Source of the DNA: a virus
Lineage: Duplodnaviria; Caudoviricetes
IMG/VR virus record: IMGVR_UViG_3300043403_000045
Location: 1-62,698 of that record
DNA: 62,698 bases
Direction: 5' to 3' (one strand)
Shown piece after piece: positions 1,509 to 60,025 of this stretch (the first letter of the stretch is position 1; every line of letters begins with the position of its first letter). The notes under the pieces are model-generated. The model ran no database searches and had not been told where the DNA came from. It worked only from the letters and a program-made list of their open reading frames with translations. The translations under genes were made by a program, and so were the position numbers.

Positions 1509-1742
1509 ATGAACCCAATAGAAAACACAAAGACACAAGAAGTTTTAGCTAACGCAAAACGAGCATTCCAAGCAGCTAGATTGAAGCGAGCTGAAAAAGA
1601 AATAGAGCAGTTATTTGAACAAATGGAAACCAATCAAAATACGATCAATTTCCACAAAAGACAGATAGCTTCGTTTGAAGATGAGATGAGGAAAATAGAA
1701 GATCGATTAAAGGCCTTTGAGGAAGGCAATTGGGACTTCTAA
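1509..1742 (+). CDS. Hypothetical coiled-coil protein
   Basis: ATG at 1509 after an A-rich leader and TGgTATGAT extended -10; heptad-like composition. Confidence 0.7.
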   Translation: MNPIENTKTQEVLANAKRAFQAARLKRAEKEIEQLFEQMETNQNTINFHKRQIASFEDEMRKIEDRLKAFEEGNWDF

Positions 1743-1763
1743 AAAAACTCCAAATTAAAATAT

Positions 1764-2279
1764 GTGAGTGTCAACAAAAACCATCGTTTTTATCAAAATC
1801 CAGAATTGGTATTGATGTACTTAAATGGCAATGCATATAGTTTCGATGAAGTAATTGATATGCTTCCATTAAAAGATTTCTTGGATAAATATATTACTCC
1901 ATATGTTTTATATGATCCAGAGGACATGGATGCAGATATTGATATATGGGATTGTCACTCTAAGGTCCCATATTATTTTAGAGCTACAGTGCCAGTATTA
2001 AACCCTAAGGGGTTTACGGATAGAAAAATGATCGAAGAAGAAAAGCGGGTTCTACAATTGGAATCTATAATAAATAGGCTTTCCATTTTGGTTTACAGAG
2101 AAAGAGTGATTTGGCAAAAATCATTAGGTAGATTTGCCGATGTGCGCGCAATCGCTTGTTATGAATTTCTGTTGGAAGCATTGCGGGATAAGTTAATTAA
2201 AGCTATTTTTGAATTCGAGAAAGCATCAGAAAATGATGATTTAAAAGCACTTACAGCAATAAGCAAAAATAAATCTTGA
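1764..2279 (+). CDS. Hypothetical protein
   Basis: 171-aa ORF in the operon; start uncertain. Confidence 0.6.
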   Translation: MSVNKNHRFYQNPELVLMYLNGNAYSFDEVIDMLPLKDFLDKYITPYVLYDPEDMDADIDIWDCHSKVPYYFRATVPVLNPKGFTDRKMIEEEKRVLQLESIINRLSILVYRERVIWQKSLGRFADVRAIACYEFLLEALRDKLIKAIFEFEKASENDDLKALTAISKNKS

Positions 2280-2325
2280 TTAAGGAAAAGGTTTGTGCAT
2301 TGTTTCTTTTCAGGACGATTTTATC

Positions 2326-2622
2326 ATGAACAAACCTGAAGAATATAAACGCCGTTTTGTCACGGTGGTCTATGAAATAACAGACGATGTTGCGTGGCGC
2401 ACTGGCGGCAACCCGCTGCACTACGAACACCACGGGCTAAAATCCGTATGCGTGTCGGCGGGCGACCTCGCATCGCTCAACGAAGAAATCGAGGCCATCG
2501 TGCAGGGCGGCGAAGAACTCGATGCGGACAAATACGACGAGCTGCACACGAAGCACGTCATGTCTTCTTTTCCGGGCCGCCCTAACAAGGCTGTTATGAC
2601 TTCCCCGCACAAATTAGATTAA
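2326..2622 (+). CDS. Hypothetical protein, GC-rich cassette-like ORF ending in an attI-like element
   Basis: Abrupt rise in GC content; the C-terminus PNKAVMTSPHKLD is encoded by the shared element. Confidence 0.7.
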   Translation: MNKPEEYKRRFVTVVYEITDDVAWRTGGNPLHYEHHGLKSVCVSAGDLASLNEEIEAIVQGGEELDADKYDELHTKHVMSSFPGRPNKAVMTSPHKLD

Positions 2623-3703: not shown

Positions 3704-4061
3704 ATCCGCGAATAGCCTTAATTAGTTTTTTATACCAAGGTAGTTTAAGCTCATTGATTTCAAAGTTCATTTCTTTCATTTCAATCAACATATATTTAGT
3801 TATATCCGTGTGAGCTTTTAACTCCGCTTTTAGCTTTATTATTGCATTACTGGCCTCTTTTAGCTCTAGGGATAAATCAGCAACCATATCGGCAAGTAAT
3901 TTAACGGCATCGTAGCTTACATAGTCAGCGCCGCCTGACTGAATTTTAGTTTCAAATTTGACATCCGTAAATCCCGCATTGGATAACGCTTTCGTTATTT
4001 CATTCTTAAGGTCATCTTCATTAATGTTTCCGCTGTCCATGCCGTTAAAGTCCGAGATCAT
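3693..4061 (-). CDS. Hypothetical coiled-coil protein
   Basis: 122-aa ORF with an AT-rich leader and a C-terminal LPWYKKL motif. Confidence 0.65.
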   Translation of the reverse strand: MISDFNGMDSGNINEDDLKNEITKALSNAGFTDVKFETKIQSGGADYVSYDAVKLLADMVADLSLELKEASNAIIKLKAELKAHTDITKYMLIEMKEMNFEINELKLPWYKKLIKAIRGYAS

Positions 4062-4139
4062 AATTTTAATTTTGTTTTTTCTTGAGTTATTTTAAAGCCA
4101 TGCTTTGCTCTGAAAGCAATCTAAATCTTATTTAAATCT

Positions 4140-4409
4140 ATGTGCAAAAAACAGGAATTAATTCACGAGCTATGCAATGCCGCTGTAGCTCTTATTGAAA
4201 AGTATAACAGTGTCATTCAAGATCGCGAATGGGTCGCTATGCAAGCCGTATCTCGTGCAAGCGGGTTTGCGTATCGCGGTCCTTGGATTGCTAAAGAAGT
4301 TCAAGACCTTGCAACTCTAGTTGAAGCGGCTAAAATGTCCGAGAAGAATCAGTGTCATGATAAATCAACAGATACACATTTTGAGGTTAGTGCCAAGGAC
4401 GGAATTTAA
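4140..4409 (+). CDS. Hypothetical protein
   Basis: 89-aa ORF after an AT-rich intergenic region. Confidence 0.6.
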   Translation: MCKKQELIHELCNAAVALIEKYNSVIQDREWVAMQAVSRASGFAYRGPWIAKEVQDLATLVEAAKMSEKNQCHDKSTDTHFEVSAKDGI

Positions 4410-4968
4410 CTCTCGCCGCCCCATCGCTATATGTGAATCGCATATAGCTGATTGGCGGCGTCTCAACCCATCTACCCCCGTTGTTTATCACGGCAATGAG
4501 GCACTAGATGAATTTTTCGACAATCCATTGCTAGGTATAGCACTGTATCGCAATTGGGATATGGCCGCGATTAGTGATCTAATCCGATTCCTGATCTTAC
4601 AGAAGTATGGTGGATTTTATGCCGATTGCGACATTAAGCCAATCGTATCTATCGAGTATATGTTTAACCTGAAATATACCGCGATTCTTGCACAACGATA
4701 TGGCTTCCCTCGAATCACTACGGCACCAGTAGCTTTTTGCGCTAAACACCATGCGATAGATAAGGTATTTGAGAAGCTAAATGCAGAGCTTTTCGAAAAG
4801 GCCCCTACCCCAATTCGCGGCTGGCACTACGAAAATTGTTTATCTAAAAACATTGACGAAACTTTTATGGTCCTACACCCTGATTGCTTCAATGCTAAAA
4901 ATCAATCAAATGCAACGATGGGTATCCATGACTATTCTAGGAATACTTTTAACGGCTATTACAGTTAA
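4357..4968 (+). CDS. Glycosyltransferase, GT32/DXD sugar-binding type
   Basis: SDLIRFLILQKYGGFYADCD matches the SDxxRxxxLxxxGGxYxDxD motif. Confidence 0.8.
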   Translation: MINQQIHILRLVPRTEFNSRRPIAICESHIADWRRLNPSTPVVYHGNEALDEFFDNPLLGIALYRNWDMAAISDLIRFLILQKYGGFYADCDIKPIVSIEYMFNLKYTAILAQRYGFPRITTAPVAFCAKHHAIDKVFEKLNAELFEKAPTPIRGWHYENCLSKNIDETFMVLHPDCFNAKNQSNATMGIHDYSRNTFNGYYS

Positions 4969-5308
4969 GGCAGACATAGATAAAGAAGCATTCCTAAATG
5001 CAATTAAACTAGTTGAATCAGGCGGTTCTGATTTAGCTATTGGTAGAAATGGAGAACGTGGATCTTTCCAGTTTTCAAAAAACACATGGAAGATGCATAG
5101 CAAGCAGAACCATAAGTGCGCACACGATCCTAAGCATTCTTTAATTGTGGCATTTTACCATCTTGAGTGGTTAATCTCGCGTGTTGGAGACGACCCAATA
5201 AAGCTAGCAATTGCATGGAATGGCGGGAGTGGCGCAGTCAGCAAGCCAACGAAGAGACAAAAAGAATATGCACGTAGGGTTCAAAACTTATACGAAACAT
5301 CACTATGA
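4910..5308 (+). CDS. Lysozyme/lytic transglycosylase-like protein with an N-terminal hydrophobic segment
   Basis: AIKLVESGG (catalytic Glu), ERGSFQF, AIAWNGG. Confidence 0.7.
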   Translation: MQRWVSMTILGILLTAITVKADIDKEAFLNAIKLVESGGSDLAIGRNGERGSFQFSKNTWKMHSKQNHKCAHDPKHSLIVAFYHLEWLISRVGDDPIKLAIAWNGGSGAVSKPTKRQKEYARRVQNLYETSL

Positions 5309-12756: not shown

Positions 12757-13179
12757 ATGGCGTCCAAAAATCAAAAAACTAAGCAAGGCCGAGGCTCGCG
12801 CTTTGGCATTAAAGCTCCTTCGGAATCACAGATAGGTTCCGCCTTCTATCGGTGGTGGTGTATGGCCTATAAAGGGCTAGGGGTGCCAAGCGCAAGCCTC
12901 TTGTTTCATATTCCAAATGAGGGAGCAGGCGGTAATCCGATCCGTGGAGCAATGCTTAAGCGTCAGGGCGTAGTGAATGGTGTTCCAGACTACTTTCTTG
13001 CCGTTGCCCGCAAGGGATTCAATGGGTTATTTATTGAGCTAAAGAAAGACACAGGAAGGGCTTCCAAAGAACAGGATAAAATAATTGTCGAATTAACTTG
13101 TCAGGGGTATCTAGCTTGTGTCTGCTATTCGTTCGAAGAGGCAGTAAATTTAGTTGAAGGCTATCTTAAATCAAAATAA
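12757..13179 (+). CDS. VRR-NUC domain nuclease
   Basis: ESQI..LFHIPNEG..GVVNGVPDYF..LFIELKK..GRASKEQ. Confidence 0.85.
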   Translation: MASKNQKTKQGRGSRFGIKAPSESQIGSAFYRWWCMAYKGLGVPSASLLFHIPNEGAGGNPIRGAMLKRQGVVNGVPDYFLAVARKGFNGLFIELKKDTGRASKEQDKIIVELTCQGYLACVCYSFEEAVNLVEGYLKSK

Positions 13180-13183
13180 ATCC

Positions 13184-13969
13184 ATGCACTGGTACAAATA
13201 TAATGAAGACGGCACAATTGAAAGCCGTTACGACGCTGACTTGCGCGAAGCTCGCAAGCAAAAGTTATTTATCTCTATCACTACAGTTGACAAAGAAATT
13301 CGCGCTAATTGGGCGATAGGCGACTATCTGCAACGCCAAACAGTTAAGGCGTGCCTAGATAACCCATCTTGGGCTAACGAAGATCAAAACGATTATTTAA
13401 CAAGAATTCGCATTGAGGCAGGCAAGCATTCCAAGAATGCCGCATCGAAAGGTGATGAAATCCATAAGGTTTTTGAGGACTACCCTCAAATGCCTTTAAA
13501 TCAAGATTACCTACCTTATTATGACCTTGCTAGCAAGTATTACGATACGCACATAATCAGCACTAGACATCGCGAAATCATGCTGGCACACCCACGCATT
13601 GGTATTGCTGGGCGTATGGATTTTATTGGAGAACACAAAAAGTATGGTCCTGTAATTATAGATTGGAAAACACAAGAGTTTAAGCACAAAGATAAGTCCA
13701 AGACTGGGCCACGCAAAGCAGGTTTCTGGGAAAGCTGGCCACGTCAACTAGCCGCAGGCAGGTATATGTACTGGCTTAAAACCGGAGAGTGGCGTAAATG
13801 TGTTTCAGTAGCTATTGATTCTAAAGAAGCTGGAATGTATGAAGAATACTTATGGACTGATGAAGAAATCGATAAAGCATATCAAGAGTTCCTGTGCCAT
13901 GCTTGGTTATATTTTACATCCAAGAACTATTGGCCATGCGGAAAGTGGGAGTTGGAGTTTGAATTTTAA
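13184..13969 (+). CDS. PD-(D/E)XK exonuclease
   Basis: SITT, GDEIH, AGRMDFI, IIDWKT, QLAA. Confidence 0.8.
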   Translation: MHWYKYNEDGTIESRYDADLREARKQKLFISITTVDKEIRANWAIGDYLQRQTVKACLDNPSWANEDQNDYLTRIRIEAGKHSKNAASKGDEIHKVFEDYPQMPLNQDYLPYYDLASKYYDTHIISTRHREIMLAHPRIGIAGRMDFIGEHKKYGPVIIDWKTQEFKHKDKSKTGPRKAGFWESWPRQLAAGRYMYWLKTGEWRKCVSVAIDSKEAGMYEEYLWTDEEIDKAYQEFLCHAWLYFTSKNYWPCGKWELEFEF

Positions 13970-14027
13970 TAGCTTAAAAATAAAAACCATTATCTTTACC
14001 GATAGTCGCCCACTTTAGAATTATTAA

Positions 14028-14360
14028 ATGAAAATATATAACCAAATTGTCGACGAATACTTTAAAAGTCATCCCGAAGCGTGGGTAGAAGTGAAGCGGG
14101 CAGACGAAAGCATTCAGAGCGTGATCGCTCGCGAGGAATTAGCGCGACTACATCACACAAACGGCATCGATCCATCTATGTTGGAGTGCGCTCTAATCAA
14201 GCTCAATAAGCCAACAATTCCTGAGCAACTCCACGACGACTATCAGCGCGTATACACGGAACACCGAGCTACTGGCAAACGTGGCTTGGTGCGCGAGATC
14301 ATCGTCGCCAAAACCGCAGACGATTCTTTAGCGAACGACCAAGATCACCCACGCGAATGA
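14028..14360 (+). CDS. Hypothetical protein, distal ORF of cassette array 2
   Basis: Ends ANDQDHPRE inside attC-like site A. Confidence 0.7.
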   Translation: MKIYNQIVDEYFKSHPEAWVEVKRADESIQSVIAREELARLHHTNGIDPSMLECALIKLNKPTIPEQLHDDYQRVYTEHRATGKRGLVREIIVAKTADDSLANDQDHPRE

Positions 14361-14418
14361 AAACTCAAGAACAACAAAAAGAAGCCGAGCCCGCGTTGGG
14401 GGTGGTGGCTGGTTCGGC
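14330..14418 (-). mobile_element. attC-like site A
   Basis: Minus strand: GCCGAAC-cagcc..CCCCAACGCG..loop..CGCGTGGGTG..GTTCGCT. Confidence 0.7.
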
Positions 14419-14641
14419 TGCTCGTGGAACGCCAGCCAGCATCGCAAAGCGACTCCGCTGGCTCTCGCACCGTATGCAATCCGTCGGGGCGGAAATGGAA
14501 TACTACGGAGGCTTTGGAGAAATCGGAGATCACGGGCGCGAAATGCAGGGAGCCGCTAGCATCGCATTTTGCTGGGCAAAGGGCATCGAAGCATCCTTGG
14601 CGAACACCCGCTCTTCAGCTACGCCGAACCATGGACGCTAA
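14357..14641 (+). CDS. Hypothetical cassette protein
   Basis: Starts in the loop of site A and ends in the loop of site B; GC-rich. Confidence 0.7.
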   Translation: MKTQEQQKEAEPALGVVAGSAARGTPASIAKRLRWLSHRMQSVGAEMEYYGGFGEIGDHGREMQGAASIAFCWAKGIEASLANTRSSATPNHGR

Positions 14642-14690
14642 AATTAAAACTGACATCGTAGAGGCGTTGCGCTGTGAGGCTTTGTTCGGC
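14599..14690 (-). mobile_element. attC-like site B
   Basis: Plus strand: GGCGAAC..TCAGCTACGCC..loop..GGCGTTGCGCTG..GTTCGGC. Confidence 0.6.
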
Positions 14691-14877
14691 TCTTCACCGC
14701 TTCGTGATGGGCATCGGTTGGACCGATCTTGGCACCGCTTTCGCGCTGATCGTGGTCGGCAACATCTGCCTCGGCGATGGCCACCTGTGGCGTGGCCTGT
14801 GGTGCTGGATGCTCGGCATCACGGTCTACGTCCGTGCTCCTCGCCCGAACCCGACCAGTGAGCCACGCGGAGAATAA
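14674..14877 (+). CDS. Small membrane cassette protein
   Basis: Two hydrophobic segments; ends PNPTSEPRGE in site C. Start is GTG 14674 or ATG 14707. Confidence 0.6.
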   Translation: MRLCSALHRFVMGIGWTDLGTAFALIVVGNICLGDGHLWRGLWCWMLGITVYVRAPRPNPTSEPRGE

Positions 14878-14931
14878 CCCTATGAAAAAAACACCTGAGA
14901 TTGCCCGCGTTGGCTCTACGGATTGTTCGGC
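14844..14931 (-). mobile_element. attC-like site C
   Basis: GTGAGCCACGCGG pairs with CCGCGT[T]GGCTC[T]AC, leaving two extrahelical bases; bounded by CCCGAAC and GTTCGGC. Confidence 0.75.
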
Positions 14932-15118
14932 CTGCTGGTGGGCAGTTTTCCCATGCGGCTGGAAGTGGGAAATCGGTAGCATGACTCGCGAGAACGAATC
15001 GCCGATTGCGATTTTCAGAATCAAGACGCACGCAACCGACTACAAAAATGTGATGTGGCCCAACCTTGGGGAAGTGCGCCCATGGCCGAACGCCCCTGAT
15101 CAGCCACGCGGAAAATGA
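14882..15118 (+). CDS. Hypothetical cassette protein
   Basis: ATG lies in the loop of site C; ends PNAPDQPRGK in site D. Confidence 0.65.
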   Translation: MKKTPEIARVGSTDCSACWWAVFPCGWKWEIGSMTRENESPIAIFRIKTHATDYKNVMWPNLGEVRPWPNAPDQPRGK

Positions 15119-15175
15119 GCACCGAAAAACAGGACGGAGCCCCGCCCGCGTTGGGCTGTATCGGGTTGGTTAGGC
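15085..15175 (-). mobile_element. attC-like site D
   Basis: GATCAGCCACGCGG pairs with CCGCGT[TG]GGCTG[T]ATC; bounded by GCCGAAC and GTTAGGC. Confidence 0.75.
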
Positions 15176-15336
15176 GGTTTGATTTTGATCGTTGCTGCGC
15201 CCGGATCGCCATCGCTCAACAGCGCATGAATATCGCTCCGACCTGCGACGAAACCGCTTACTGGTGCCGCATCTGGCGCGCCCGCCGTCGCATCTACCGA
15301 ATTGCCTCAAAACGTGAACTCCACCTTTTAGCCTAA
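15115..15336 (+). CDS. Hypothetical Arg-rich cassette protein
   Basis: ATGA coupling in the loop of site D; the stop is the TAA of GCCTAAC in the attI-like element. Confidence 0.6.
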   Translation: MSTEKQDGAPPALGCIGLVRRFDFDRCCARIAIAQQRMNIAPTCDETAYWCRIWRARRRIYRIASKRELHLLA

Positions 15337-15380
15337 CAAGGCTGTTATGACTTCCCCGCCTAAATAAGAAATACTTATGA
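15331..15380 (-). mobile_element. attI-like element, copy 2
   Basis: 47/50 identical to the reverse complement of 31622-31671; minus strand ends in GTTAGGC. Confidence 0.65.
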
Positions 15381-15928
15381 GACTTAAAATAGACAGAGAT
15401 CATTCCAAGCAACCAATTAACGGTTGGTCTTTTCGTGAAGAATTTGGAGTGACCCTAAAAGAAGATTCATTAAATGAGATGCTAAGGCGAATCGTGCGAT
15501 TCAGGGAAAGCAACATGTTACCCGTGGGAGATCCAGAACATGAGCTTGCACTACAATACTCGCAAACTCATCCTCATCTAGTAGTAAGAACAGAATCGTG
15601 TATTGTAAAGGAGTCTCGTGAAATGCTAGAGTTCATGCAATGGCTTACAGATATTTGGAAATGCCCCCCAAAGCTGATTTCCGATAAGGCAGAAATTCAG
15701 AGGCGCTCCAAAGCGTGCATATCTTGCAAATGGAATGATTCCGATTTTGCTTGCACCCCTGATAACATGAGGCGTATCTATGCAGTTTCAGGTGCGACAT
15801 CAAGCGATAGAATACACCGATGCGTAATACATGGATGGCACAATATCGTTGGATGCCGATTAAGTAAAACCGAAAAAAATGAACATCAGCCTGAGCATTG
15901 CTGGGCTGGTGAAGTACCTAAATTATAA
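15377..15928 (+). CDS. Cys/His-rich hypothetical protein
   Basis: CISCKWN and HCW; the start codon lies within the attI-like element. Confidence 0.7.
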   Translation: MRLKIDRDHSKQPINGWSFREEFGVTLKEDSLNEMLRRIVRFRESNMLPVGDPEHELALQYSQTHPHLVVRTESCIVKESREMLEFMQWLTDIWKCPPKLISDKAEIQRRSKACISCKWNDSDFACTPDNMRRIYAVSGATSSDRIHRCVIHGWHNIVGCRLSKTEKNEHQPEHCWAGEVPKL

Positions 15929-17226
15929 TGAAACCATCAAAAACTACTAACGAAGCTACACTATTAGGGTGTTTTTTAATTGATAATAATCTAATAGATA
16001 AAGCTGTCGCATCGGGATTGACAAAATCCCATTTCATTGAGCCTTGGCAATGTCAGTTCTTTGAGAAAGCAATCAAGATACGTGCCACTGGAGGAGTAGT
16101 CGATATTACTAGCTTAGCAGTAGAGGGAGTACCTTATGCAGATGCGATTACAGTAGAAAATGCAACTGGCACATCAATGCCGTACGCATCCGCGTTAGAT
16201 CAAGTACTTTGGGCATATTCCAAAAGTAAAATAGATATGCTATGCCTACAAGCCAAAGAAGTTATAAAGACAGATAGCGCAACTGACGATGCACGAAAGC
16301 AGGTGGCATCGCTAGTAACTCAGATGCAGGCGTGGATTGCGGACAAAAAAGATACGGCTAGGACTTGCGAGGAGATAGGTGCAGAAGTAGAGCAGTGGGC
16401 TCAAGACCTGATTGATGGCAAACCAGATAACCGTGTTAAAGTCGAATGGCCTTTGCCTACTATGAATGAGAGATTTGGCCCTATAATGCCGAATGAGTTA
16501 TGTTGCTTAGCGGCTCGTCCAAAGGAGGGTAAGACTTCCGTGGCCCTACAGATTATTGGGCATAACTTAAAGCGCGGACTAAAAATGGCTTACTTCACTA
16601 TGGAAACCAGTGATAGTGCCACACTGAAAATGATTGCCTCCCAGATGGCTCAAGTTGATTTGAGGAATATAGCTAACTCACCTAGGGACAAACAGCAAAA
16701 TTTCCTAAAGTATGTTAAGAAACTCCGTGCATCTAAGAACTTAGCTATTTTCGAGAAGGATATGAATATACTAAGTATTGAGGCGAGATGTCGCATGCTT
16801 AAGGCTGGCATGCAGCCCGATTTTATTGTCATAGACCACTTGCATCTAATTCAGAATGACTTTGGGGATAAGCAATATGAGAAGATCACTGATAGCGTTA
16901 ATCGGATAATCGAGCTGCGCAAACACATGGGATGTGCCATCATCCTATGTTTACAGCTAAATCGCGCTAATGTGAACGCAGAGCGTGCCCCCCGTGCATC
17001 TGACGCAAAAGACTCAGGCGCAATTGAAGCCGCTGCCCATCGCATGGTTATCCCTTATCGCCCACCTAATGATTTTATGGATCAACCACAAGTAGGCCCA
17101 GAGGCTTTGATGCGATCAACATACGACTATTTCTTCATTCAGGACATTTGCCGAGATGGGCCTAGCGGAGTAGTTAAGGCCACCTATTTATCTCAAATAA
17201 CAACCTTTATAGATTGCAATAAATAA
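15928..17226 (+). CDS. dnaB: DnaB-like replicative helicase
   Basis: NEATLLG, AARPKEGKT, FTME, IVIDHLHLI, QLNR, DAKDSGAIEAAAH. Confidence 0.9.
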   Translation: MKPSKTTNEATLLGCFLIDNNLIDKAVASGLTKSHFIEPWQCQFFEKAIKIRATGGVVDITSLAVEGVPYADAITVENATGTSMPYASALDQVLWAYSKSKIDMLCLQAKEVIKTDSATDDARKQVASLVTQMQAWIADKKDTARTCEEIGAEVEQWAQDLIDGKPDNRVKVEWPLPTMNERFGPIMPNELCCLAARPKEGKTSVALQIIGHNLKRGLKMAYFTMETSDSATLKMIASQMAQVDLRNIANSPRDKQQNFLKYVKKLRASKNLAIFEKDMNILSIEARCRMLKAGMQPDFIVIDHLHLIQNDFGDKQYEKITDSVNRIIELRKHMGCAIILCLQLNRANVNAERAPRASDAKDSGAIEAAAHRMVIPYRPPNDFMDQPQVGPEALMRSTYDYFFIQDICRDGPSGVVKATYLSQITTFIDCNK

Positions 17227-26032: not shown

Positions 26033-26196
26033 GCAAACCAAGAAACGCACCCACCCAAGGTAAAGGCCGTCGTCCCATCATAGGCTACGATAACACTAAG
26101 TTCCGCGCTAACTATGACGAAATCTTCAAGAAGAAAGAAAAATGCGAAAAAACTCGACAGCCTTCACATGAAATAAGAAAGTCATCAAGCGATTAG
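26029..26196 (+). CDS. Small basic protein (55 aa, not in the ORF track)
   Basis: MSKPRNAPTQGKGRRPIIGYDNTKFRANYDEIFKK...; ATGA-coupled to the upstream gene. Confidence 0.6.
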   Translation: MSKPRNAPTQGKGRRPIIGYDNTKFRANYDEIFKKKEKCEKTRQPSHEIRKSSSD

Positions 26197-26546
26197 TCCG
26201 AATTAAACCGATATGGAAAATCAAACTGAAAATACGCAAGCAGAAGTATTGCACTCAAACAACCTCAATAGGCGTCTAGGACGTTTCCACGTAAGCCGAG
26301 AACTGCTCAACCAGCAACCGGAAAAACTTAAACCTATCTTTGCTAACGTGATTGTGGTTGAAGCGCAAATGCGCTGGGTAAGCGACAGCGTGGAATACCT
26401 CGCGATGTCCGACCGTTTCGAACGAGTTCCCTATGGGCAAATGGCGCCATTTTACGATATTCAATTTCACGAGGATAAATACTATCTATCGACCTTGTAT
26501 CCGCCACCCAATCATAGCTTGCGATAACACTAAGTTCCGCGCTAAC
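26088..26546 (+). repeat. 25-bp direct repeat (26088-26112 and 26522-26546) flanking one gene
   Basis: CGATAACACTAAGTTCCGCGCTAAC occurs twice. Confidence 0.9.
26213..26527 (+). CDS. Hypothetical protein
   Basis: 104-aa ORF between the direct repeats. Confidence 0.7.
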   Translation: MENQTENTQAEVLHSNNLNRRLGRFHVSRELLNQQPEKLKPIFANVIVVEAQMRWVSDSVEYLAMSDRFERVPYGQMAPFYDIQFHEDKYYLSTLYPPPNHSLR

Positions 26547-26635
26547 CTTTTCAAATCTTATTGCCAGTAACACGATAAAATGCTCAGTAACATTGACCTT
26601 GTTACTGGAACAAAAAATAAGTTACTAGCTTGTTT

Positions 26636-31289: not shown

Positions 31290-31625
31290 TTATTTTATCT
31301 TCCAATAGCCTCTAGCAATAGCCAAAGTAGCGCGCTCAAGCGAGCCCGTGCGCCAGTGTTGGCCGTCGATAATTAAATCCACCTGATTGATACGCCCACG
31401 AAGTGAACGGATGATGCGCCAAGTGTGTATCGAACCATCTGCACGGTAGTTTATCCCCTCGCGAATTAACTCCCCGCGCTTGTCGTTAAGTGCCCGCATG
31501 CGGAGGGTGTGTAAGTCCGGCCCTCGCTGCATGCGTTCCCCTGCTTGCACAGCCTGAGAGCGTCGCCCCCATTCGCGAGCGACTGCGTGGCGTTTGTGCT
31601 TCGGGATATTTTGTAGTGCTATCAT
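31290..31625 (-). CDS. Hypothetical Arg-rich protein
   Basis: Start codon lies within attI-like copy 3. Confidence 0.65.
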   Translation of the reverse strand: MIALQNIPKHKRHAVAREWGRRSQAVQAGERMQRGPDLHTLRMRALNDKRGELIREGINYRADGSIHTWRIIRSLRGRINQVDLIIDGQHWRTGSLERATLAIARGYWKIK

Positions 31626-31671
31626 AAGTATTTCTTATTTTGGCGGGCAAGGCATAACAGCCTTGTTAGGC
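31622..31671 (+). mobile_element. attI-like element, copy 3
   Basis: TCATAAGTATTTCTTATTTTGGCGGGCAAGGCATAACAGCCTT-GTTAGGC. Confidence 0.65.
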
Positions 31672-32267
31672 GAACGAAGATGCCGCATGGCGGTGTTGCC
31701 GTAGCGGGGATGCTTGTCGCGGAAGTAGCTGCCGGGATATTCGAGGCGCACGAAGCCGAATCCGGCTCCGCGCCAGCAAGGATGCACCGACACGATGCGC
31801 GCCTCGACATGCTTCCCCGCGCCGAGGATGCGGAATTGGTCGTCGAGCACGCACATGCCTTTGAGGCCGTGATGGTCGATGTTGTTGCGCACGGAAACGG
31901 AACGCCCAACCAGTCCGCCAGAGCCAACGCCGTCAGCGTCGGGGGCGAGTTCCAAAGTCTGTTCAGCGGCGTGGCTCATCGGAAGCGTTCTCCCGAATGA
32001 AGTCCCCGCGCAGATTTCGCATGGAGATTCCGGCAGCTTTAAGCTGTGCGGGCGTGGCTCATCGGAAGCGTTCTCCCGAATGAAGTCCCCGCGCAGATTT
32101 CGCATGGAGATTCCGGCAGCTTTAAGCTGTGCGGGCGTGCGCTCATTGGTTTCGATCACCCGTTCTTCGCAGTTCACGAAGAGGCGGAAGGTTGTCATTT
32201 GTTCGGGAGATTCCTCGCGGAGTGCGTCCACAAGGGCGTCGATTGCTGTTTGTATTTTCGGTGTCAT
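31635..32267 (-). CDS. Two cassette ORFs (MTPKIQ.. from 32267 and MSHAAE.. from 31979) fused in frame by an 83-bp duplication
   Basis: Removing one repeat unit gives ...RENASDEPRR-stop and a separate downstream ORF ending PNKAVMPCPPK. Confidence 0.6.
   Translation of the reverse strand: MTPKIQTAIDALVDALREESPEQMTTFRLFVNCEERVIETNERTPAQLKAAGISMRNLRGDFIRENASDEPRPHSLKLPESPCEICAGTSFGRTLPMSHAAEQTLELAPDADGVGSGGLVGRSVSVRNNIDHHGLKGMCVLDDQFRILGAGKHVEARIVSVHPCWRGAGFGFVRLEYPGSYFRDKHPRYGNTAMRHLRSPNKAVMPCPPK
31904..31993 (+). mobile_element. attC-like site E
   Basis: GCCCAAC-cagtc..GAGCC[A]ACGCCG..loop..CGGCGTGGCTC..GTTCTCC. Confidence 0.8.
31968..32139 (+). repeat. 83-bp perfect tandem duplication
   Basis: 31968-32050 equals 32051-32133, with GGCGTG microhomology at the junctions. 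Confidence 0.9.
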
Positions 32268-32285
32268 ATCGGTATTTCGGAAGAG

Positions 32286-32413
32286 GGAGAACAAGGCGTG
32301 CGAGCTAGGTGCCCAGAGCCAACAGGCGCGGGCGGCACGTTTTCGATAGGTTTCATAGAGTGCTTTCGTCTGGGGTTTTCTGCCGCGCCTGCGGCTCATG
32401 CACGGTGTTCGGG
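32286..32413 (+). mobile_element. attC-like site F
   Basis: GGAGAAC..GAGCC[A]ACAGGCGCGG..loop..CCGCGCCTGCGGCTC..GTTCGGG. Confidence 0.75.
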
Positions 32414-32694
32414 TGAAGCAGGCGCAGGCGGGCGCGGATTTCGGCCCTGATTGCGTGGCGGGCTGCTGCGGCTCCTTCCATGTATTCACTGCACACGGCT
32501 CCGCCGGGGCGCTCCCCGCAGAAGCGGAGCAGCCTTTTCAGTTCTCCCACAGCTTCACCCGAACCCCCGCCCACACCCAACGCGCCTGACTGGGCCTTCT
32601 GTTCGCGCATGGCGTCCACGCGCGCGGCCTGTGAGGGCGTCAGCATGTCGGGATTCGTCGAGAGGAAATTGAGCAGTTTATTGCGGGCGGTCAT
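32353..32694 (-). CDS. Hypothetical cassette protein
   Basis: MTARNKLLNF... reads through half-site G and ends HPNTVHEPQARQKTPDESTL in site F. Confidence 0.55.
   Translation of the reverse strand: MTARNKLLNFLSTNPDMLTPSQAARVDAMREQKAQSGALGVGGGSGEAVGELKRLLRFCGERPGGAVCSEYMEGAAAARHAIRAEIRARLRLLHPNTVHEPQARQKTPDESTL
32558..32607 (+). mobile_element. attC-like half site G (degenerate)
   Basis: CCCGAAC..CACACCCAACGCG left arm; partner arm not found. Confidence 0.5.
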
Positions 32695-33061
32695 TGGAGG
32701 TAGTCGGTTCTGCGCTCGCGGCGCGTTGGTGATCAGTGTCCACGCTTGCGAGCACTCCCGCGCATTCGGCGAGTTGTTCGGCCAGCTTGTCGCATCGGTC
32801 GGCATAGTGCTTCGCCCACTTCGCTTGATCGTCAGCGTCTGTTTTTGCATTTGTTAGCATCGCCTGCATTGCGCGCATTTGAGCCTCTGAGTAGCCGTCA
32901 TAGAAAGCTTGCGGTTGCTGTGAGGCGTCCGCTGCCTCCACCCATTGGGTTAGCCGAGTTTCGATTTCGCGAGCTACGCGGGCGGGTATCACGTCGCGAT
33001 CCCCGTATCGGTCGGCACTTTTTTCACACGAGTCTGTTATTGGTGTTTTTGATATTGTCAT
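32678..33061 (-). CDS. Hypothetical protein
   Basis: MTISKTPITD..VAREIE; GC-rich. Confidence 0.7.
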   Translation of the reverse strand: MTISKTPITDSCEKSADRYGDRDVIPARVAREIETRLTQWVEAADASQQPQAFYDGYSEAQMRAMQAMLTNAKTDADDQAKWAKHYADRCDKLAEQLAECAGVLASVDTDHQRAASAEPTTSNDRPQ

Positions 33062-33080
33062 AGGTTTAAGATTTTGTGTC

Positions 33081-33506
33081 TCAGGTGCTCGGAGAAACAA
33101 GGCGCCGGTCGAAATTTAGATCCATTTGAGCATCTATTGCTGCGCGGATGTCGCGGGTGTTTCCCGTCTGATTTGCGGGCAGGCCGATGCCCCATCCGCG
33201 CTCTAGCAGCCCATCAAAGTCATACCCCCAATCTTCAAGCCAATCAATGCGCTTCTTATCCTCGCAAAGAACGGCGATTGCTTCATCTGTTTTTAGTCCT
33301 CCTGCATGATTCGTAGCACCTTCGAGCACACGGATGCGCGAAGCTTGGTTTTTGATTTTCTCGCGCATTACAGCGGCCTCGCTTTCAAGCCGAGCTATTT
33401 TATCGTCTTTCGTTGAGGCCAAGACGAATTGGCCGTTTTCCCATGTTCCTTGCATATTGTGTTTTCGTTGAGTTTTTAAGAGGTCGAGCCATTGCCTTAC
33501 AGACAA
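33081..33506 (-). CDS. Hypothetical protein
   Basis: Coiled coil, EDKKRIDWLE..RAAIDA; true start may be 33455. Confidence 0.65.
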   Translation of the reverse strand: MSVRQWLDLLKTQRKHNMQGTWENGQFVLASTKDDKIARLESEAAVMREKIKNQASRIRVLEGATNHAGGLKTDEAIAVLCEDKKRIDWLEDWGYDFDGLLERGWGIGLPANQTGNTRDIRAAIDAQMDLNFDRRLVSPST

Positions 33507-52608: not shown

Positions 52609-53389
52609 TGTTGTTTTCTTGGATTTCCGAAATTCTATTCACAATGTATTTACGGTCTATTTTATTTTTCAATAACTTAATGTAATCCTTGTGCGATTGA
52701 TCCATGTTGGCTTCATTGTACTCCTTGATTTCAGTGGCCACTCTTGGATTATCAACCTTTAGTTCCTCAATAGACTGTACGGATCGCAGCATGGCCCCTT
52801 CAGCAACTGCGTGCTTGGCCTTTAGCTCTCTCGCCTCCTTGTCTCGGTTATAGAGCCACCATATGAATGCCGCACCGAGCACCGCTAGTACGTAGTTCAT
52901 TAGCTCTTCATTCCCTGCCAAATACCATAGCAGAAAAGATGCACCACCCGCAATGGCTGACACTATTGCTGGGCCTATTTGCCTGAGATAAACGAGAATG
53001 CCAGCAACGGCTAAAGAACCTAGAGCGATATACAGCAAGACTCGCCTCTCCGAGTTCTGCTCTTTCTGCATTTGAACTCGAACATCGGGCTTAGCAGGTG
53101 GCGAAATAACTGCTAGTGTTCGCTCAATGTCTTCTACGATCTTAGCTGGCTGCGTATAGGTTATTACTTCTCTTTTGGTTTCCGGCTTTGTTTCTGTGCC
53201 AGAGACTGTTTCGATAACATAGGTAGAGCCTGCCGGAATTTCGGTAATTTTCTTGGATTTATTTTCTGTGATTGTTGATTGTTTTTCTGCATTTTGTGGG
53301 GGTTCTATTTTTTTCTTGCTTAGCGCAATTCCTGCCGATGCACATCCATTTAGTAAAACTATCAAAAAAAGGATTAGCATGTGCCGCAT
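52571..53389 (-). CDS. Membrane lipoprotein (possible lysis/spanin-like)
   Basis: Lipobox LNGC and three C-terminal transmembrane helices. Confidence 0.6.
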   Translation of the reverse strand: MRHMLILFLIVLLNGCASAGIALSKKKIEPPQNAEKQSTITENKSKKITEIPAGSTYVIETVSGTETKPETKREVITYTQPAKIVEDIERTLAVISPPAKPDVRVQMQKEQNSERRVLLYIALGSLAVAGILVYLRQIGPAIVSAIAGGASFLLWYLAGNEELMNYVLAVLGAAFIWWLYNRDKEARELKAKHAVAEGAMLRSVQSIEELKVDNPRVATEIKEYNEANMDQSHKDYIKLLKNKIDRKYIVNRISEIQENNNGNTSKGVTHIS

Positions 53390-53394
53390 ACAAA

Positions 53395-54300
53395 TCACGC
53401 CTCGGTGAGCACTATTATCAGCCCATCTCCACCAGTTCCGGCGTTTCCTCCGGTCGTACCTGCACCACCGCCACCGCCACCGCAACCCAATCGTCCATTG
53501 CCACCTACTCCGCCGACACTTGTATTGCTTGCACCGCCGCCTGATCCACCAGTAGCAACGAGTGGTCTTTCGGAGTACCAGCCACCATTGCCGCTGTTAC
53601 TGCCCGCTGCGCCACCTGCAATGGTGGGGATAATACCCGCGCCTGTGATTGCGCCACCAGCAAAGTCTGCCGATGTTGTTCCCCCGCCACCTGCTCCGCC
53701 AGTGACTATATTTACTAATGCGGTCACGCTGCCACCAGCCGCACCTGTTTGCGCGCCACCAACTGCACCAGATTGACCAGCAATAGCTATCCAGCTAATT
53801 GCTAGAGAGGATAATACTGCTGATGAATTTACTGCGATAGTGCTACCCGCACCTGCCGTGCCGCCTGCTGACCCTGTACCTGATCCAGCCGATCCTGCAT
53901 CCGCTGCTCCCGAGATAAGCAGTAAATCTGCCGCCGTGATAGATTGTCGAATAGAGACATAGGCCCTACCACCCGCACCAGCCGCACCCGAAATTGCTCC
54001 ACCACGAGGAACCTGAAACCATAATACCTCTGGTAAGGTAGAAGCAAGGAAGGATGCGCGAACAATGGCGCCACTGCCACCACCGCCACCGCCACCGCCT
54101 GCCGCTGCTGCTGCTCGTGTGAACCCAGTACCACCACCTCCTCCGGCTCCTAGCAAAAAGAAATGAACTAATCGCGCACCAGCGGGTTTCTGCCATAGCT
54201 GCCAATTCTTAGTTGCAGTGCCCGCTCCCGGCGTACCCATTGCGTAAAACCGCTGCTCATAGGAGGCAATGTGAGGAGACTGGAAAATTCCGGTATTCAT
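53395..54300 (-). CDS. Glycine-rich virion protein
   Basis: WQKPAGARLV..LGAGGGGG..GGDGLIIV glycine-rich domain. Confidence 0.75.
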   Translation of the reverse strand: MNTGIFQSPHIASYEQRFYAMGTPGAGTATKNWQLWQKPAGARLVHFFLLGAGGGGGTGFTRAAAAAGGGGGGGGSGAIVRASFLASTLPEVLWFQVPRGGAISGAAGAGGRAYVSIRQSITAADLLLISGAADAGSAGSGTGSAGGTAGAGSTIAVNSSAVLSSLAISWIAIAGQSGAVGGAQTGAAGGSVTALVNIVTGGAGGGGTTSADFAGGAITGAGIIPTIAGGAAGSNSGNGGWYSERPLVATGGSGGGASNTSVGGVGGNGRLGCGGGGGGAGTTGGNAGTGGDGLIIVLTEA

Positions 54301-57442: not shown

Positions 57443-60025
57443 TTAAAATACCGAAACGCTAGGAGTTGCGGCTCCGGGAATTCTATAGGTCGAACCTGCT
57501 CGGATTGGGCCGGAGTCATAACCGCTAAACGTCGCGTCGGGCGTGCTGGCCTTAACATTAAAGTGCCAGTCTAGCATCGATGGGAATCTCCCATTGATAA
57601 GCATAGAAGGGATCGCAGCGCCTCTCGCCGCTGAGTTAGTAGGCGCGTCATAGGATGCGAAGGATTCTAAAGGTAATCCGGGCAAGCGCGGCGTGTTATC
57701 ACCAGCAAGTGTAAATAACGGGTCGCCGTAAGACCCTACAGGCAGGCCATTGAATGTTTCGGCACCCGTCGCCCGCAATTGGGCCAGATTAGTGCAAGCT
57801 GTCGAATTACGGTTGATTGAGAAGGTTGAACCACTGTGAGCCCAATACGTATTTCCCAGCATGTCTGAGTCGCGGACGTTACCGAAAACTGCGCCTGCCG
57901 AGACCACGAATATATTGTTAACGAATCGGCCCTTGCCGTTGCCTTCTAGGTAGATGAGGTCACCCATTGAGGCGTGGCCTCTTGGATTGTAGAAAATACA
58001 ATTCTCAACGAGTACTTGCGTGGTGTTGGTTCCAACAACTGAGAAACCGCCTGCGTTGTTAGCCGTGCTCCTGCGACCACCGTTTACAAAAATGCAATCA
58101 CTGTAACGATTACCAGATGAAGGAATCGAGTAACTGAGAGCATCCCAATTGAACGCTAGTGCGCCGTCAACGTCATGACCATAGCAATACTCACAAGCGC
58201 AGCCGACGCAATACGCATCGAAGTCGAAAGAGTTTCCATCGTACGGTGAAGGCGAGCGAATTTCGTAGGCTTCACATCTACGCCATGTGCAGTTTTTAGC
58301 GTTACTGAATATGTACCCACACGAGCCGTTTGTCGCAGAGTTGTTAGATGCTTCTGACGCGTGGTGAGCTACGCAATCTTCACCAAGAAAATCTTGCGCG
58401 TTGAAAACAATAAAAGGGAACCCAGTGCAGCTAGCGACCGATGTGCGTCCGTAGATGTGGTGCACATTACATTTCCAGAACTCACAGCCTTTATTGACAA
58501 AATTATAGTTCGTCATGTGGTTTGGAGGAAGAGAGCCCCACAGCGAGATGCCAGCCTCGGCGCAGTCATGTACCTCAACATTGAGAATGCGTAGGCGATG
58601 GAAGCCTTTTGTTGCATTGGTTACAGTGCTTCCCGCTAAAATCCCCTCATTGCATCCGTAAACTTCGCCATTTGATATAGTGGTCCCAACTAAGTCAAAG
58701 GCGCTCGTCGTCGTGTGCAGCACGATGCCTGCTTGAGTTGACGTGGTTGTCGATGTCATGTTCGGGAATGTCCCGCTCAGCGACAGTCCCGGTCCCTGAA
58801 TAGTGAATTGGTCAATGGTCACATACCCTGTGTTCTGCACTTTTAGTGCGTAGCCATTGCCCGGAGTTATCCTAAATCGACCCGTACCATACGGCTGAAT
58901 CTTGATGGGGGTTGTAGCGGTGGCAGGTGTAGATGGATTAATGAGAAGGCTACCCGTGAATGTATCACCACCCTTGAGGTTAATCGTATCACCGGCTACA
59001 ATATCGTTTGCCGTGACTTTTGCTAGAGTCTGCCACGGAGTCGAGGAACTCAGCCCGTCGTTGCTGTCGCTTCCTGTGGCCGAAACGTAGAACGTGCCAG
59101 CGGCCCGTGAGGGGGCGGCGGGTGTTGTAACCGAGACAGGCGTGGAGTTTTGGGTCACTGGCGAACCAGCGGAATCTGTGACGGCAACCCTGTACCAATA
59201 AACCGTGGATGCGGCGACTGTAGTGTCTACTCGATTACTCGGTGCAACTGTATCTGCAAGGGGTCCAAGTGCTGATCCGTTGTTAGCAAAGGTGCCCGGA
59301 GAACCCGACGCATCAGGGGCGCGCTGGTATTGGTACGTGTAAGGTGCAGTGCCAAAACTTGCAGCGGTGTGTGAAACGGTAACTTGGCTTGAAGTGTCTG
59401 GGGTTGCTGTTGTTGTACCGGGTGAACCACCTGCGGGGATGTCACGATACTCAATAGAGTCGAGTTCAAGTCCACCGGGGTTCGTATCGCTCGTATGAAC
59501 AAGCATGCCCGAGTAGTACACACCTGTTAGTGATGTGCCGCTATGCGTAACCGAGATCCGTGAAACACCATCAACAAGGATAGTTTTCTGCGTTGCAGTT
59601 ATGCGCAGCGTTATCGTGTAGCTCTGACCGGGAGTAAGCGTAAGCGCGTAGGTGCCAATGGTGGATTCAGATCCATTTTCAGGACGCCATATAAGTTCTA
59701 GTGTTCCGTCTGGTCTGAGTGATGCCCCATAGTACGAGTAAGTCGCCGCGTTGCTCATCAGCCCGTAAAGCTGGATAATTCCGCTCGCCGACGTTACGCG
59801 GATTACACCAACCACTTCAATCGGTATTCCGCTAGGTAACTGTGCGGAGTGCCTTATGCTAGTGTATTCAGGTGAACCACCCGGATGTCGGATGCGGTTG
59901 TTGTTGATTTGGACCCCTGAGTTGCCGTCGAAAAGACTCCATGTGCCTCCGCCAACGTCAGGCGTGTGGCTGGAAAGTGCCGTGCCGTTTGTTCCCGTGA
60001 AAGTATCTTGTAAGTAAGTGGCCAT
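57443..60025 (-). CDS. Tailspike-like protein: lectin-like + FN3-like + right-handed beta-helix (putative polysaccharide depolymerase)
   Basis: YWYRVAV (FN3), FYVSATGSDSNDG..PWQTL..GDTINLKGG and parallel beta-helix repeats. Confidence 0.75.
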   Translation of the reverse strand: MATYLQDTFTGTNGTALSSHTPDVGGGTWSLFDGNSGVQINNNRIRHPGGSPEYTSIRHSAQLPSGIPIEVVGVIRVTSASGIIQLYGLMSNAATYSYYGASLRPDGTLELIWRPENGSESTIGTYALTLTPGQSYTITLRITATQKTILVDGVSRISVTHSGTSLTGVYYSGMLVHTSDTNPGGLELDSIEYRDIPAGGSPGTTTATPDTSSQVTVSHTAASFGTAPYTYQYQRAPDASGSPGTFANNGSALGPLADTVAPSNRVDTTVAASTVYWYRVAVTDSAGSPVTQNSTPVSVTTPAAPSRAAGTFYVSATGSDSNDGLSSSTPWQTLAKVTANDIVAGDTINLKGGDTFTGSLLINPSTPATATTPIKIQPYGTGRFRITPGNGYALKVQNTGYVTIDQFTIQGPGLSLSGTFPNMTSTTTSTQAGIVLHTTTSAFDLVGTTISNGEVYGCNEGILAGSTVTNATKGFHRLRILNVEVHDCAEAGISLWGSLPPNHMTNYNFVNKGCEFWKCNVHHIYGRTSVASCTGFPFIVFNAQDFLGEDCVAHHASEASNNSATNGSCGYIFSNAKNCTWRRCEAYEIRSPSPYDGNSFDFDAYCVGCACEYCYGHDVDGALAFNWDALSYSIPSSGNRYSDCIFVNGGRRSTANNAGGFSVVGTNTTQVLVENCIFYNPRGHASMGDLIYLEGNGKGRFVNNIFVVSAGAVFGNVRDSDMLGNTYWAHSGSTFSINRNSTACTNLAQLRATGAETFNGLPVGSYGDPLFTLAGDNTPRLPGLPLESFASYDAPTNSAARGAAIPSMLINGRFPSMLDWHFNVKASTPDATFSGYDSGPIRAGSTYRIPGAATPSVSVF

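Follow-up and report, generated by a model that had tools for sequence, protein, structure and literature searches.

Integron cassettes are thought to work in one orientation only, their genes being read under the Pc promoter in the direction that leads away from the attI site. The DNA described here, hereafter the window, raises the question of whether a phage can carry such cassettes facing the other way. It is the complete virus record IMGVR_UViG_3300043403_000045 (Caudoviricetes), a genome of 62,698 bp with direct terminal repeats, and at 14330–15175 (846 bp) it holds four imperfect palindromes between five small G+C-rich open reading frames (ORFs) on the + strand. An earlier note on this DNA took the palindromes for attC sites and claimed that the coding strand is the attC bottom strand, with the genes pointing towards attI. 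We place at roughly 70% the probability that the phage array consists of mirror-image integron cassettes, whose genes run to an attI-like core and whose hairpins act as gene junctions. As part of this reading, the island at 14028–15349 would be a five-gene integron-type array without its own integrase, i.e. a cluster of attC sites lacking integron-integrases (CALIN). Four sites fall within 846 bp and the record holds no integrase, as in a CALIN, and the arrangement of a complete integron, with intI beside attI and the array, does not occur in the 62,698-bp record.

The four sites, S1 to S4, all lie on the + strand and measure 89, 92 (88 counted from the box), 90 and 91 nucleotides (nt), within the attC range of 57–141 nt. 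Their boxes, (A/G)(G/C)CGAAC ... GTT(C/A)GGC, fit the attC pattern 5'-RYYYAAC ... GTTRRRY-3', with position 4 being G or C, off the R/Y consensus, in three sites. S1 (14330–14418) combines the 5' box AGCGAAC, the stem CCACGCG / CGCG-T-TGG and the 3' box GTTCGGC. S3 spans 14843–14932, and S4 (15085–15175) runs from GCCGAAC to GTTAGGC and has, in a hand alignment, three extra bases on the arm opposite AAC. These three of the four sites share the form CGAAC-N12-CCACGCG ... CGCGTTGG-N-GTT(C/A)GGC, and the two halves of this pattern match three times each in the window, against 0.18 and 0.02 matches expected by chance. S2 (14599–14690) represents a second subfamily and resembles four sites of a bacterial array (L163) by blastn. 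Its 5' box had earlier been put at an inner GCCGAAC at 14623, which does not hold, as both covariance models described below place it at GGCGAAC, 14603–14609, with the 3' box GTTCGGC at 14684–14690. The conserved GCCCGCGTTGG is translated P-A-L-G at S1 and S4 and A-R-V-G at S3, and because the frame differs among the sites, the conserved DNA is read as a nucleic-acid element and not as a peptide motif. We take the four hairpin sites to be real and not the product of chance.

Two covariance models of the site were used, R1 and R2, the latter built only from 92 bacterial sites adjoining integron-integrase (IntI) genes. With R1 and R2 respectively, S1 scores 69.7 and 43.9 bits, S2 22.6 and 31.3, S3 65.6 and 36.5, and S4 70.9 and 54.8. 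Across 21 aligned sites there are 18 pairs with 89.6% of cells paired and five pairs changed on both sides, and none of 500 shuffles equals the covariation score of the alignment; slid controls pair at 31–47%. Compensatory changes in the stem include GAGCCA/TGGCTC, GACCCA/TGGGTC and CTGCCA/TGGCAG, and AAC and GTT are invariant or nearly so. Pattern scans also found the element in nine other viral contigs; a loose first pattern gave at least 119 stretches, mostly chance, and was then refined. The strict pattern, run over one genome per species, returned nine stretches, seven of them in Opitutaceae or Verrucomicrobiae genomes, and one bacterial stretch (L163) carries at least 16 sites on one strand in 8 kb. 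IntI scores above its curated cut-off in 66 of 151 Opitutaceae genomes. Within ±10 kb of 16 of these genes, R1 (hits counted at E ≤ 0.01) gave 131 hits in 15 of the 16 loci, and one locus, which ends at a contig end, had no hit.

The boxes carry a further mark of cassette exchange. Box position 4 is unpaired within its own site in 13 of the 21 aligned sites. When the 3' box of one site is compared with the 5' box of the next, this position is paired in 29/31 viral and 83/86 bacterial pairs, as against 19/43 viral and 49/107 bacterial sites for a site's own two boxes. Such pairing with the next site is the signature of integron cassettes, the physical attC sites being hybrids that arise from exchange inside the box. 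The clear case in the window is S4, whose boxes GCCGAAC and GTTAGGC do not pair with each other at position 4, while the 3' box is complementary to GCCTAAC at 15331. The complementarity is symmetric and would look the same whichever box is cut. On this combined evidence S1 to S4 are assigned to the attC family of the chromosomal integrons of Opitutaceae (Verrucomicrobiota), and Opitutaceae are probably the hosts of the phage.

The strand on which the genes lie can be judged from the asymmetry of the hairpin and from the layout of the bacterial integrons. According to Nivina et al. (2016; PMC5027507), the recombined bottom strand of an attC site has its extrahelical bases across from the 5'-AAC-3' arm, whereas the top strand has them on the AAC arm itself; the last of these bases is a T, conserved and preceded by a stem of 6 bp. 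One bulged T is present in all 21 aligned sites, following a 6-bp stem such as GAGCCA/TGGCTC, and on the + strand of the window it falls on the arm opposite AAC, which, as far as a single base goes, agrees with the bottom-strand mark of that study. In the bacterial loci, 131/131 R1 hits share the strand of intI, are found on its attI side and point at intI. Between bacterial sites, the interval has its longest ORF on the strand opposite the site model in 98/109 cases and on the same strand in 11/109, and the lipoprotein gene of locus L179 gives a direct example of this canonical layout. Of 35 intervals in this phage and the nine other viral contigs, 29, including 4/4 in the window, have their longest ORF on the site-model strand (Fisher p = 1e-15 for viral against bacterial intervals). 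The ORFs of the window are thus not opposite the recombined bottom strand, where those of canonical cassettes lie.

These observations support placing the phage cassette genes on the bottom strand of attC, so that they face the opposite way to the genes of host cassettes that use this attC family. The orientation claim of the earlier note is borne out in this respect. The hairpins are nearly symmetric, with fold energies alike on the two strands (−11.9 / −11.3, −7.7 / −7.8, −16.4 / −18.5 and −20.5 / −20.2 kcal/mol for S1 to S4), and the asymmetry could have been misread: if the + strand were the attC top strand, or the true genes lay on the − strand, the cassettes would be canonical. The − strand of the G+C-rich stretch also has open frames of 62–126 aa, and third-position G+C does not separate the strands clearly. 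Set against this are the 131/131 bacterial hits running toward intI in the orientation that equals the window + strand, and the R2 scores of 31–55 bits on + for S1 to S4, the best reverse-orientation match in the window being 11.6 bits (at S3), with no reverse-strand match of S1 to R2 listed at E up to 5. The − strand ORF at 14647–15024 has no Pfam or PHROG match, and the conserved cores of homologues of three of the cassette ORFs (A, B and D, below) match the + frames, which contradicts one of the two cases that the earlier note had named as its own refutation. The canonical reading is contradicted by this evidence and we consider it very improbable.

The bacterial arrays have features of their own, with up to 20 sites in 10 kb and IntI open frames of ~400–530 aa that carry N-terminal extensions (loci L212–L227 and L179). 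In the integron of one genome (G002), an IS30-like transposase with HTH_38 and rve domains lies at 4023–5063 (−) of L179, between the first cassette and the first attC. Two loci from Opitutaceae/Verrucomicrobiae assemblies, L164 and L168, have loops of the phage type, with a start codon in the loop and the ORF on the model strand, and are possibly prophages.

If the phage genes are read along the attC bottom strand, each hairpin is part of two coding sequences, and the codons at the four sites are arranged accordingly. At 4/4 sites in the window the AAC of the 5' box is read in frame as Asn, as had been proposed, and the upstream ORFs end, in the order S1 to S4, with ANDQDHPRE, ANTRSSATPNHGR, PNPTSEPRGE and PNAPDQPRGK, each closed by a stop codon. 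In the loop of S1, ATG 14357 overlaps TGA 14358, and in that of S4, ATG 15115 overlaps TGA 15116. The S2 loop has ATG 14631, 8 nt ahead of TAA 14639, and the S3 loop has TAA 14875, then ccct, then ATG 14882, with GGAG at 14869 closing the 5' stem. The 5' stem often ends CGCGGAG, which puts GGAG 7–10 nt ahead of the loop ATG, as at S3 (read by eye and uncounted). The earlier claim that every loop holds the upstream stop and the next start is correct for the codons at all four places, but ATG 14631 is not in the frame closed by TAA 14875.

The same geometry recurs beyond the window and distinguishes viral from bacterial sites. A loop ATG opens a frame of at least 50 codons at 26/46 viral against 9/131 bacterial sites, and a stop in the AAC frame precedes the 3' arm at 41/43 viral against 60/117 bacterial sites (p = 4e-8). 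The longest upstream frame is the AAC (Asn) frame in 23/46 viral sites, 22 of these 23 stopping before the 3' arm; in 12/46 it is the frame in which the TAA of a CTAAC box can serve as the stop, and does so in 9 of the 12. The third frame is the longest in 2/46, six sites have no long upstream frame and three have no AAC. The proposal that each unit brings its own start and a stop for any upstream neighbour would fit the 41/43 count. The third cassette (C) of the window breaks the rule, and the AAC frame is used by no more than about half of the upstream ORFs in viral arrays, others stopping at the box TAA.

Five cassette genes fill the island. ORF A (14028–14360, +, 110 aa) belongs to the cassette farthest from the attI-like core and has no attC upstream. 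Ten homologues were found, in a family of ~156–192 aa, and relative to these ORF A is shortened by two internal deletions, including a CxxC region; the conserved core ends ...IVAKT, then xxSLAN, and is followed by the tail DQDHPRE and a stop. The parts that ORF A lacks are the CRWCGQTREGVRWDWYGKPPTC region and a further 26 residues present in the homologues. One homologue is annotated from a Verrucomicrobiota genome, and the locus of a relative in a 120-kb viral contig (L228) gave no site-model hit. ORF B (14357–14641, +, 94 aa) is part of a large family of small proteins, with 236 representative proteins at E ≤ 1e-3. ORF C1 (14674–14877, +, 56–67 aa) is hydrophobic and has the tail PNPTSEPRGE; its frame, closed by TAA 14875, opens no earlier than 14662 and offers GTG 14674 and ATG 14707 as its first starts. 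Cassette C may either be frameshifted or start at GTG 14674 or ATG 14707. ORF D (14882–15118, +, 78 aa) matches phrog_12692 (E 9.3e-5, residues 19–63), the one family that Pfam and PHROGs searches gave for the cassette proteins. ORF E (15115–15336, +, 73 aa), in the last cassette, stops at the TAA inside GCCTAAC, and its similarity to sequences elsewhere is confined to the site-encoded leader. ORFs C1 and E are supported by geometry only. The + strand ORFs are real genes: ORFs A, B and D, and the ORF of island 3 described below, have homologues.

The homologues also bear on where exchange occurs. In those of ORFs A, B and D the core is kept up to the Asn, after which the tails are unrelated. 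The ORF A family ends in DQDHPRE, a lone K or VTDQTRAGERRKDT, each before a stop, in AAVSQPGQ... or in AKGSRAEERE, and the ORF B family in TRSSATPNHGR, TVITDPHPRK... or IADQRRSPE. The site-encoded leaders also differ among the homologues of ORFs B and D, so that the conserved part extends from box to next box. The boxes are thus boundaries either of exchange or of site homogenisation. The two closest ORF B homologues (82–86% identity) have the core between ..AGSA.RG and ..GIEASL(A/P)N in common with it, but neither the leader nor the tail, and the ORF D homologue P0002 is 65% identical over residues 20–70, the alignment ending ...RPWPN, after which P0002 has T and a stop.

Such a pattern would also be expected if both boxes were exchange points, a single bulged base giving low strand selectivity so that both strands are recombined, and gene cores and attC interiors reassort as two kinds of module. 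Consistent with this, the closest ORF B homologues share exactly the segment from 3' box to next 5' box, and ORF D and P0002 do likewise. A site of L168 is also 94% identical over 83 nt to one of the viral contig L131 between unrelated flanks, and removing extrahelical bases raises top-strand recombination (Nivina et al., PMC5027507). Concerted evolution of the sites would, however, look the same, the leaders are co-inherited with the core in the family of the ORF in island 3 (see below), and the bacterial hits are in one orientation in 131/131 cases. It is also familiar from the Vibrio repeats that attC sites are homogeneous within one host lineage while the genes differ. We regard exchange at both boxes as rather improbable and retain mirror-image cassettes as the preferred reading.

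If the genes run toward attI, an attI should lie downstream of them, and it is here that the layout of the genome matters. Genes lie on the + strand over the first 27 kb and on the − strand beyond ~28 kb. The genome has a G+C content of ~43%, with three stretches at 57–58%: 2351–2601, 14076–15351 and 31301–33276. The array under study is the second of these along the genome and is referred to as island 1, with the stretch at 31301–33276 as island 2 and that at 2351–2601 as island 3. At the end of island 1, at 15331–15349 (+), is the sequence GCCTAAC-AAGGCT-GTTATG, followed by ~30 further conserved bases before ATG 15377 of the next phage gene. The same core occurs in island 2 at 31671–31653 (−), where the last ORF reads through it in frame (...SPN KAVMPCPPK and a stop), and, with one mismatch, in island 3 at 2580–2598 (+). 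All three copies close a G+C-rich island on its gene-sense side, and in each case the next phage gene follows after a few tens of bases; islands 1 and 2 are 92% identical over 53 nt at the core. An attI-like core is thus found in three places downstream of the genes, where the earlier model needed attI to be. A reading of the conserved core as a sigma-70 promoter was considered and rejected, as 13500–16000 contains no promoter-like site.

Island 3 contains a single G+C-rich ORF of 98 aa (2326–2622, +), which reads through the core as ...RPN KAVMTSPHKLD before its stop. It has 20 homologues, most with an attC-like leader (..PAGQSPALALATGSASSK..) and the end ..FPGR before the stop, and the leaders of this family are co-inherited with the core. 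Island 2 has an attC-type site at 31904–31993 (−; R1 56.2 bits, R2 45.5 bits) and two weak or degenerate attC-like sites at 32558–32645 and 32299–32413 (−; R1 18.3 and 14.0 bits). At 32299–32413 the ORF ends PNTVHEPQARQKTPDESTL and a stop, in an ATGA stop/start overlap. The ORF upstream of 31904–31993 would end ENASDEPRR and a stop but for a duplication of 83 nt. This is a perfect tandem duplication at 31974–32139 (−), its unit including the 5' arm of the attC-type site and ending at a repeated CACGCC, and, as 83 is not divisible by 3, two cassette frames are joined by it into a single frame of 284 aa. For the gene after island 2 (31290–31625, −, 111 aa), homologues come immediately behind the arrays in two other viral contigs, L133 (5741–5977) and L131, so that the place of arrays in these phages may be conserved.

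On the other strand the core reads CATAAC-AGCCTT-G/TTAGGC. The Opitutaceae integrons have a related attI core, ATAAC-ACT-G/TTNGGC (ATAACACTG(T/A)TNGG), at 10/17 IntI loci, once each, on the top strand only and 80–270 nt beyond the start of intI, and three further host loci have ACAACGTTNGGC-like cores. The likeness of the phage core to host attI appears real, and the core is a putative attI. First core regex patterns gave no match in other viral loci or beside bacterial intI; the host attI core and a similar end of another array (L150) were then read by eye, the latter array ending GCCTAACAAAGCGGATTAGC where the G+C content drops. In a contig from a sequencing run of another study (X3), the match to the window begins at 15331, and the 19 letters ahead of it are unlike. 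Both this junction and the L150 array end fit a landing site at the core. A repeat at 26106 and 26540 was considered as a further attI-like site and rejected as a coding motif common to two + strand genes. This is a 30-nt repeat, GAAC-TTAGT-GTTATCG (26046–26130 and 26500–26560, seen on −), near the start of two neighbouring + strand genes.

No match to TIGR02249 or PF00589 was found in the complete 62,698-bp record, which has no tyrosine recombinase and no integrase, and IntI was found in none of eight other viral contigs, some of them fragments. The ninth, L051, has an IntI (270.4 bits, against a cut-off of 265) on the strand of its cassette genes, 35 nt beyond a terminal CCCGAAC-AAGTGA-TTAGGC. 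It lies at 1645–2595 (+) in a viral contig (G155) of 27 kb, 65% complete by CheckV, where it follows an inverted array co-directionally. No description of this layout was found in the literature. In Treponema integrons intI precedes the array and the genes still read away from attI. L051 is unlike these, its genes reading toward the core with intI after them, and the window itself has no intI. The two are alike in that cassette genes and intI are on the same strand, as described for the atypical Treponema integrons (PMC3607928).

Taken together, these features suggest how the array may work. The cassette genes have the direction of the flanking phage genes and lead to the attI-like core and, beyond it, into the phage gene that follows, and each attC hairpin would be transcribed inside a polycistronic message. 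The upstream gene would read the 5' box (AAC = Asn) and the 5' arm and stop in the loop, where the next gene would start, either within an ATGA overlap or at a distance of a few bases, with the 3' arm as its first 12–17 codons. Exchange inside the box would give the upstream gene a short new tail and a stop. Since the sites keep the AAC frame and, in phages, almost always close it with a stop, any cassette order would remain translatable. We infer that an integron integrase of the host, or one of the phage as in L051, still moves the cassettes. The cut would fall at AA/C of the 5' box, translation may be coupled through the hairpin, and expression would come from upstream phage promoters.

Several observations weigh against this reading. 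In the sites themselves, there is one conserved bulged base only, against the two or three extrahelical bases described by Nivina et al. (PMC5027507), and box and stem are separated by a 9 x 9 internal loop in which no L box is evident. The DNA fold z-scores of S1 to S4 are −0.13, +0.75, −3.28 and −1.41, and the RNA scores −0.42, +0.86, −4.25 and −2.15; S1 and S2 thus fold no better than shuffles, and folding energy alone is weak evidence. R2 was trained on sites that R1 had picked out, which leaves the models partly dependent on each other. From the loop ATG 14631 another frame is read (14631–14861), so cassette C breaks the start-in-loop rule. The gene core of ORF B is co-inherited with neither flanking attC interior, and which box is cut cannot be read from its homologues. 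At the core, the spacer between ATAAC and GTT is 6 nt, against 3 or 0 in host attI, which makes it attI-like and not a match, and among other viral contigs the exact core 18-mer turned up just twice, by chance, within a tail gene in phages that are unrelated. All three islands are without a distal attC, which simple attI x attC insertion should leave. No recombination event, excised circle or cassette permutation was seen, and the sequencing reads showed no joints. Parts of 13255–15330 had no cover in runs X3 and X4 and were spanned by no contig, to which no weight is given here. Comparison among loci found no window cassette in another context beyond similarity of the sites, the shared features being site-level similarity and one common downstream gene. 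ORF A, itself a decayed copy, and the frame-breaking duplication in island 2 likewise weigh against active mobility.

The last of these points would also be explained if the arrays were relics, copied once from phage or host by illegitimate or homologous recombination and no longer mobile, with the stop/start packing being ordinary phage compaction over hairpins that serve at most as RNA structures. The absence of a distal attC from all three islands, the internal deletions of ORF A, the 83-nt duplication, the apparent frameshift of cassette C, the lack of an integrase in the phage record and the lack of joints in the reads are all in keeping with decay. A relic would not, however, be expected to show the hybrid-box signature as strongly in viral arrays (29/31) as in bacterial integrons (83/86), nor to keep the AAC frame and its stop across 10 viral contigs. 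Three separate islands end at one conserved core, the contig from another study's run differs before that core, and one related viral contig (L051) has its own IntI. We consider it unlikely that the arrays are relics, and we continue to prefer mirror-image cassettes that end at an attI-like core.

The sites have no Rfam match at gathering score, 13000–16500 has no match to a phage collection by blastn in distant mode, and no relatives were found among viral contigs via the DnaB-like helicase. Besides this helicase, the genome encodes an exonuclease, a VRR-NUC nuclease, a methyltransferase and a tail fibre protein. Two more − strand stretches have a G+C content of 56–58% (53376–54276 and 59001–59501), and neither is matched by the site models; the first coincides with an ORF of 301 aa (53398–54300, −) that has no Pfam family.

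Several known systems resemble this array in part. The chromosomal integrons of Opitutaceae share with the phage the attC boxes, stem, bulged T, hybrid-box signature and a related core ATAAC...GTTNGGC, and are unlike it in that their genes are on the top strand and diverge from intI (98/109 intervals), their loops are mostly paired, G+C-rich and mostly without start codons (9/131 with one), an AAC-frame stop is present at 60/117 sites only, and the attI spacer is 3 or 0 nt against 6. Among sedentary chromosomal integrons, inverted cassettes are mostly toxin-antitoxin cassettes with their own promoters. These are like the phage cassettes in having the gene on the attC bottom strand; they are single, with own promoters and canonical neighbours, whereas here whole arrays are inverted, have no promoter-like sites and are chained by stop/start pairs in the loops. 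The orientation of toxin-antitoxin cassettes in an array is mentioned in PMC13108822. Synthetic attC sites placed within coding sequence (Nivina et al., 2020; PMC7439510) also superimpose attC structure on a protein-coding sequence; those are engineered, and the sites described here are natural, lie across a gene junction and keep a fixed frame to AAC.

The closest precedent is the finding of CALINs in phage genomes, including those of virulent phages, with phage attC sites that can be recombined by IntI1 (Qi et al., 2023; PMC9892861). These, like the array in the window, are attC arrays without intI inside phage genomes. They are unlike it in being arrays of typical bacterial structure, and the passages of that paper covered here report no inversion, loop stop/start pairs, in-frame AAC or attI-like cores and contain no mention of Verrucomicrobia, while its supplements may list cassette orientations. 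More widely, passages of the literature on attC, phage CALINs and Verrucomicrobia integrons yielded no arrays that are inverted relative to attC and carry stop/start pairs in their loops.

Phage-borne attC clusters have so far been treated as ordinary cassette arrays. The arrangement described here extends the inverted orientation, first claimed for one locus, to a group of phages of one bacterial family, and the same attC family is used both ways: canonically in bacterial integrons, and inverted in phages with the hairpin as an in-frame gene junction. Annotation pipelines that assume the canonical orientation would put such genes on the wrong strand or miss them. Host integron cassettes are known to carry defence genes. 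Phage-defence cassettes in integrons also feature in passages of the literature on attC and phages. Against this background we advance, as a tentative proposal short of even odds, that Opitutaceae phages keep their own mirror-image cassette pool, using host or phage IntI and attI-like landing sites in phage operons. Phage cassettes would then be antisense and silent in a host integron, and host cassettes silent in the phage, and attC would serve as a universal gene junction that supplies tail, stop, start and leader. Who recombines the phage attC sites, and what role the many small phage cassette proteins have, can now be tested. If the cassettes are mobile, this would be a natural way to keep promoterless genes expressed after shuffling without Pc, and these phages would draw on integron recombination yet stay apart from the cassette pool of their hosts.

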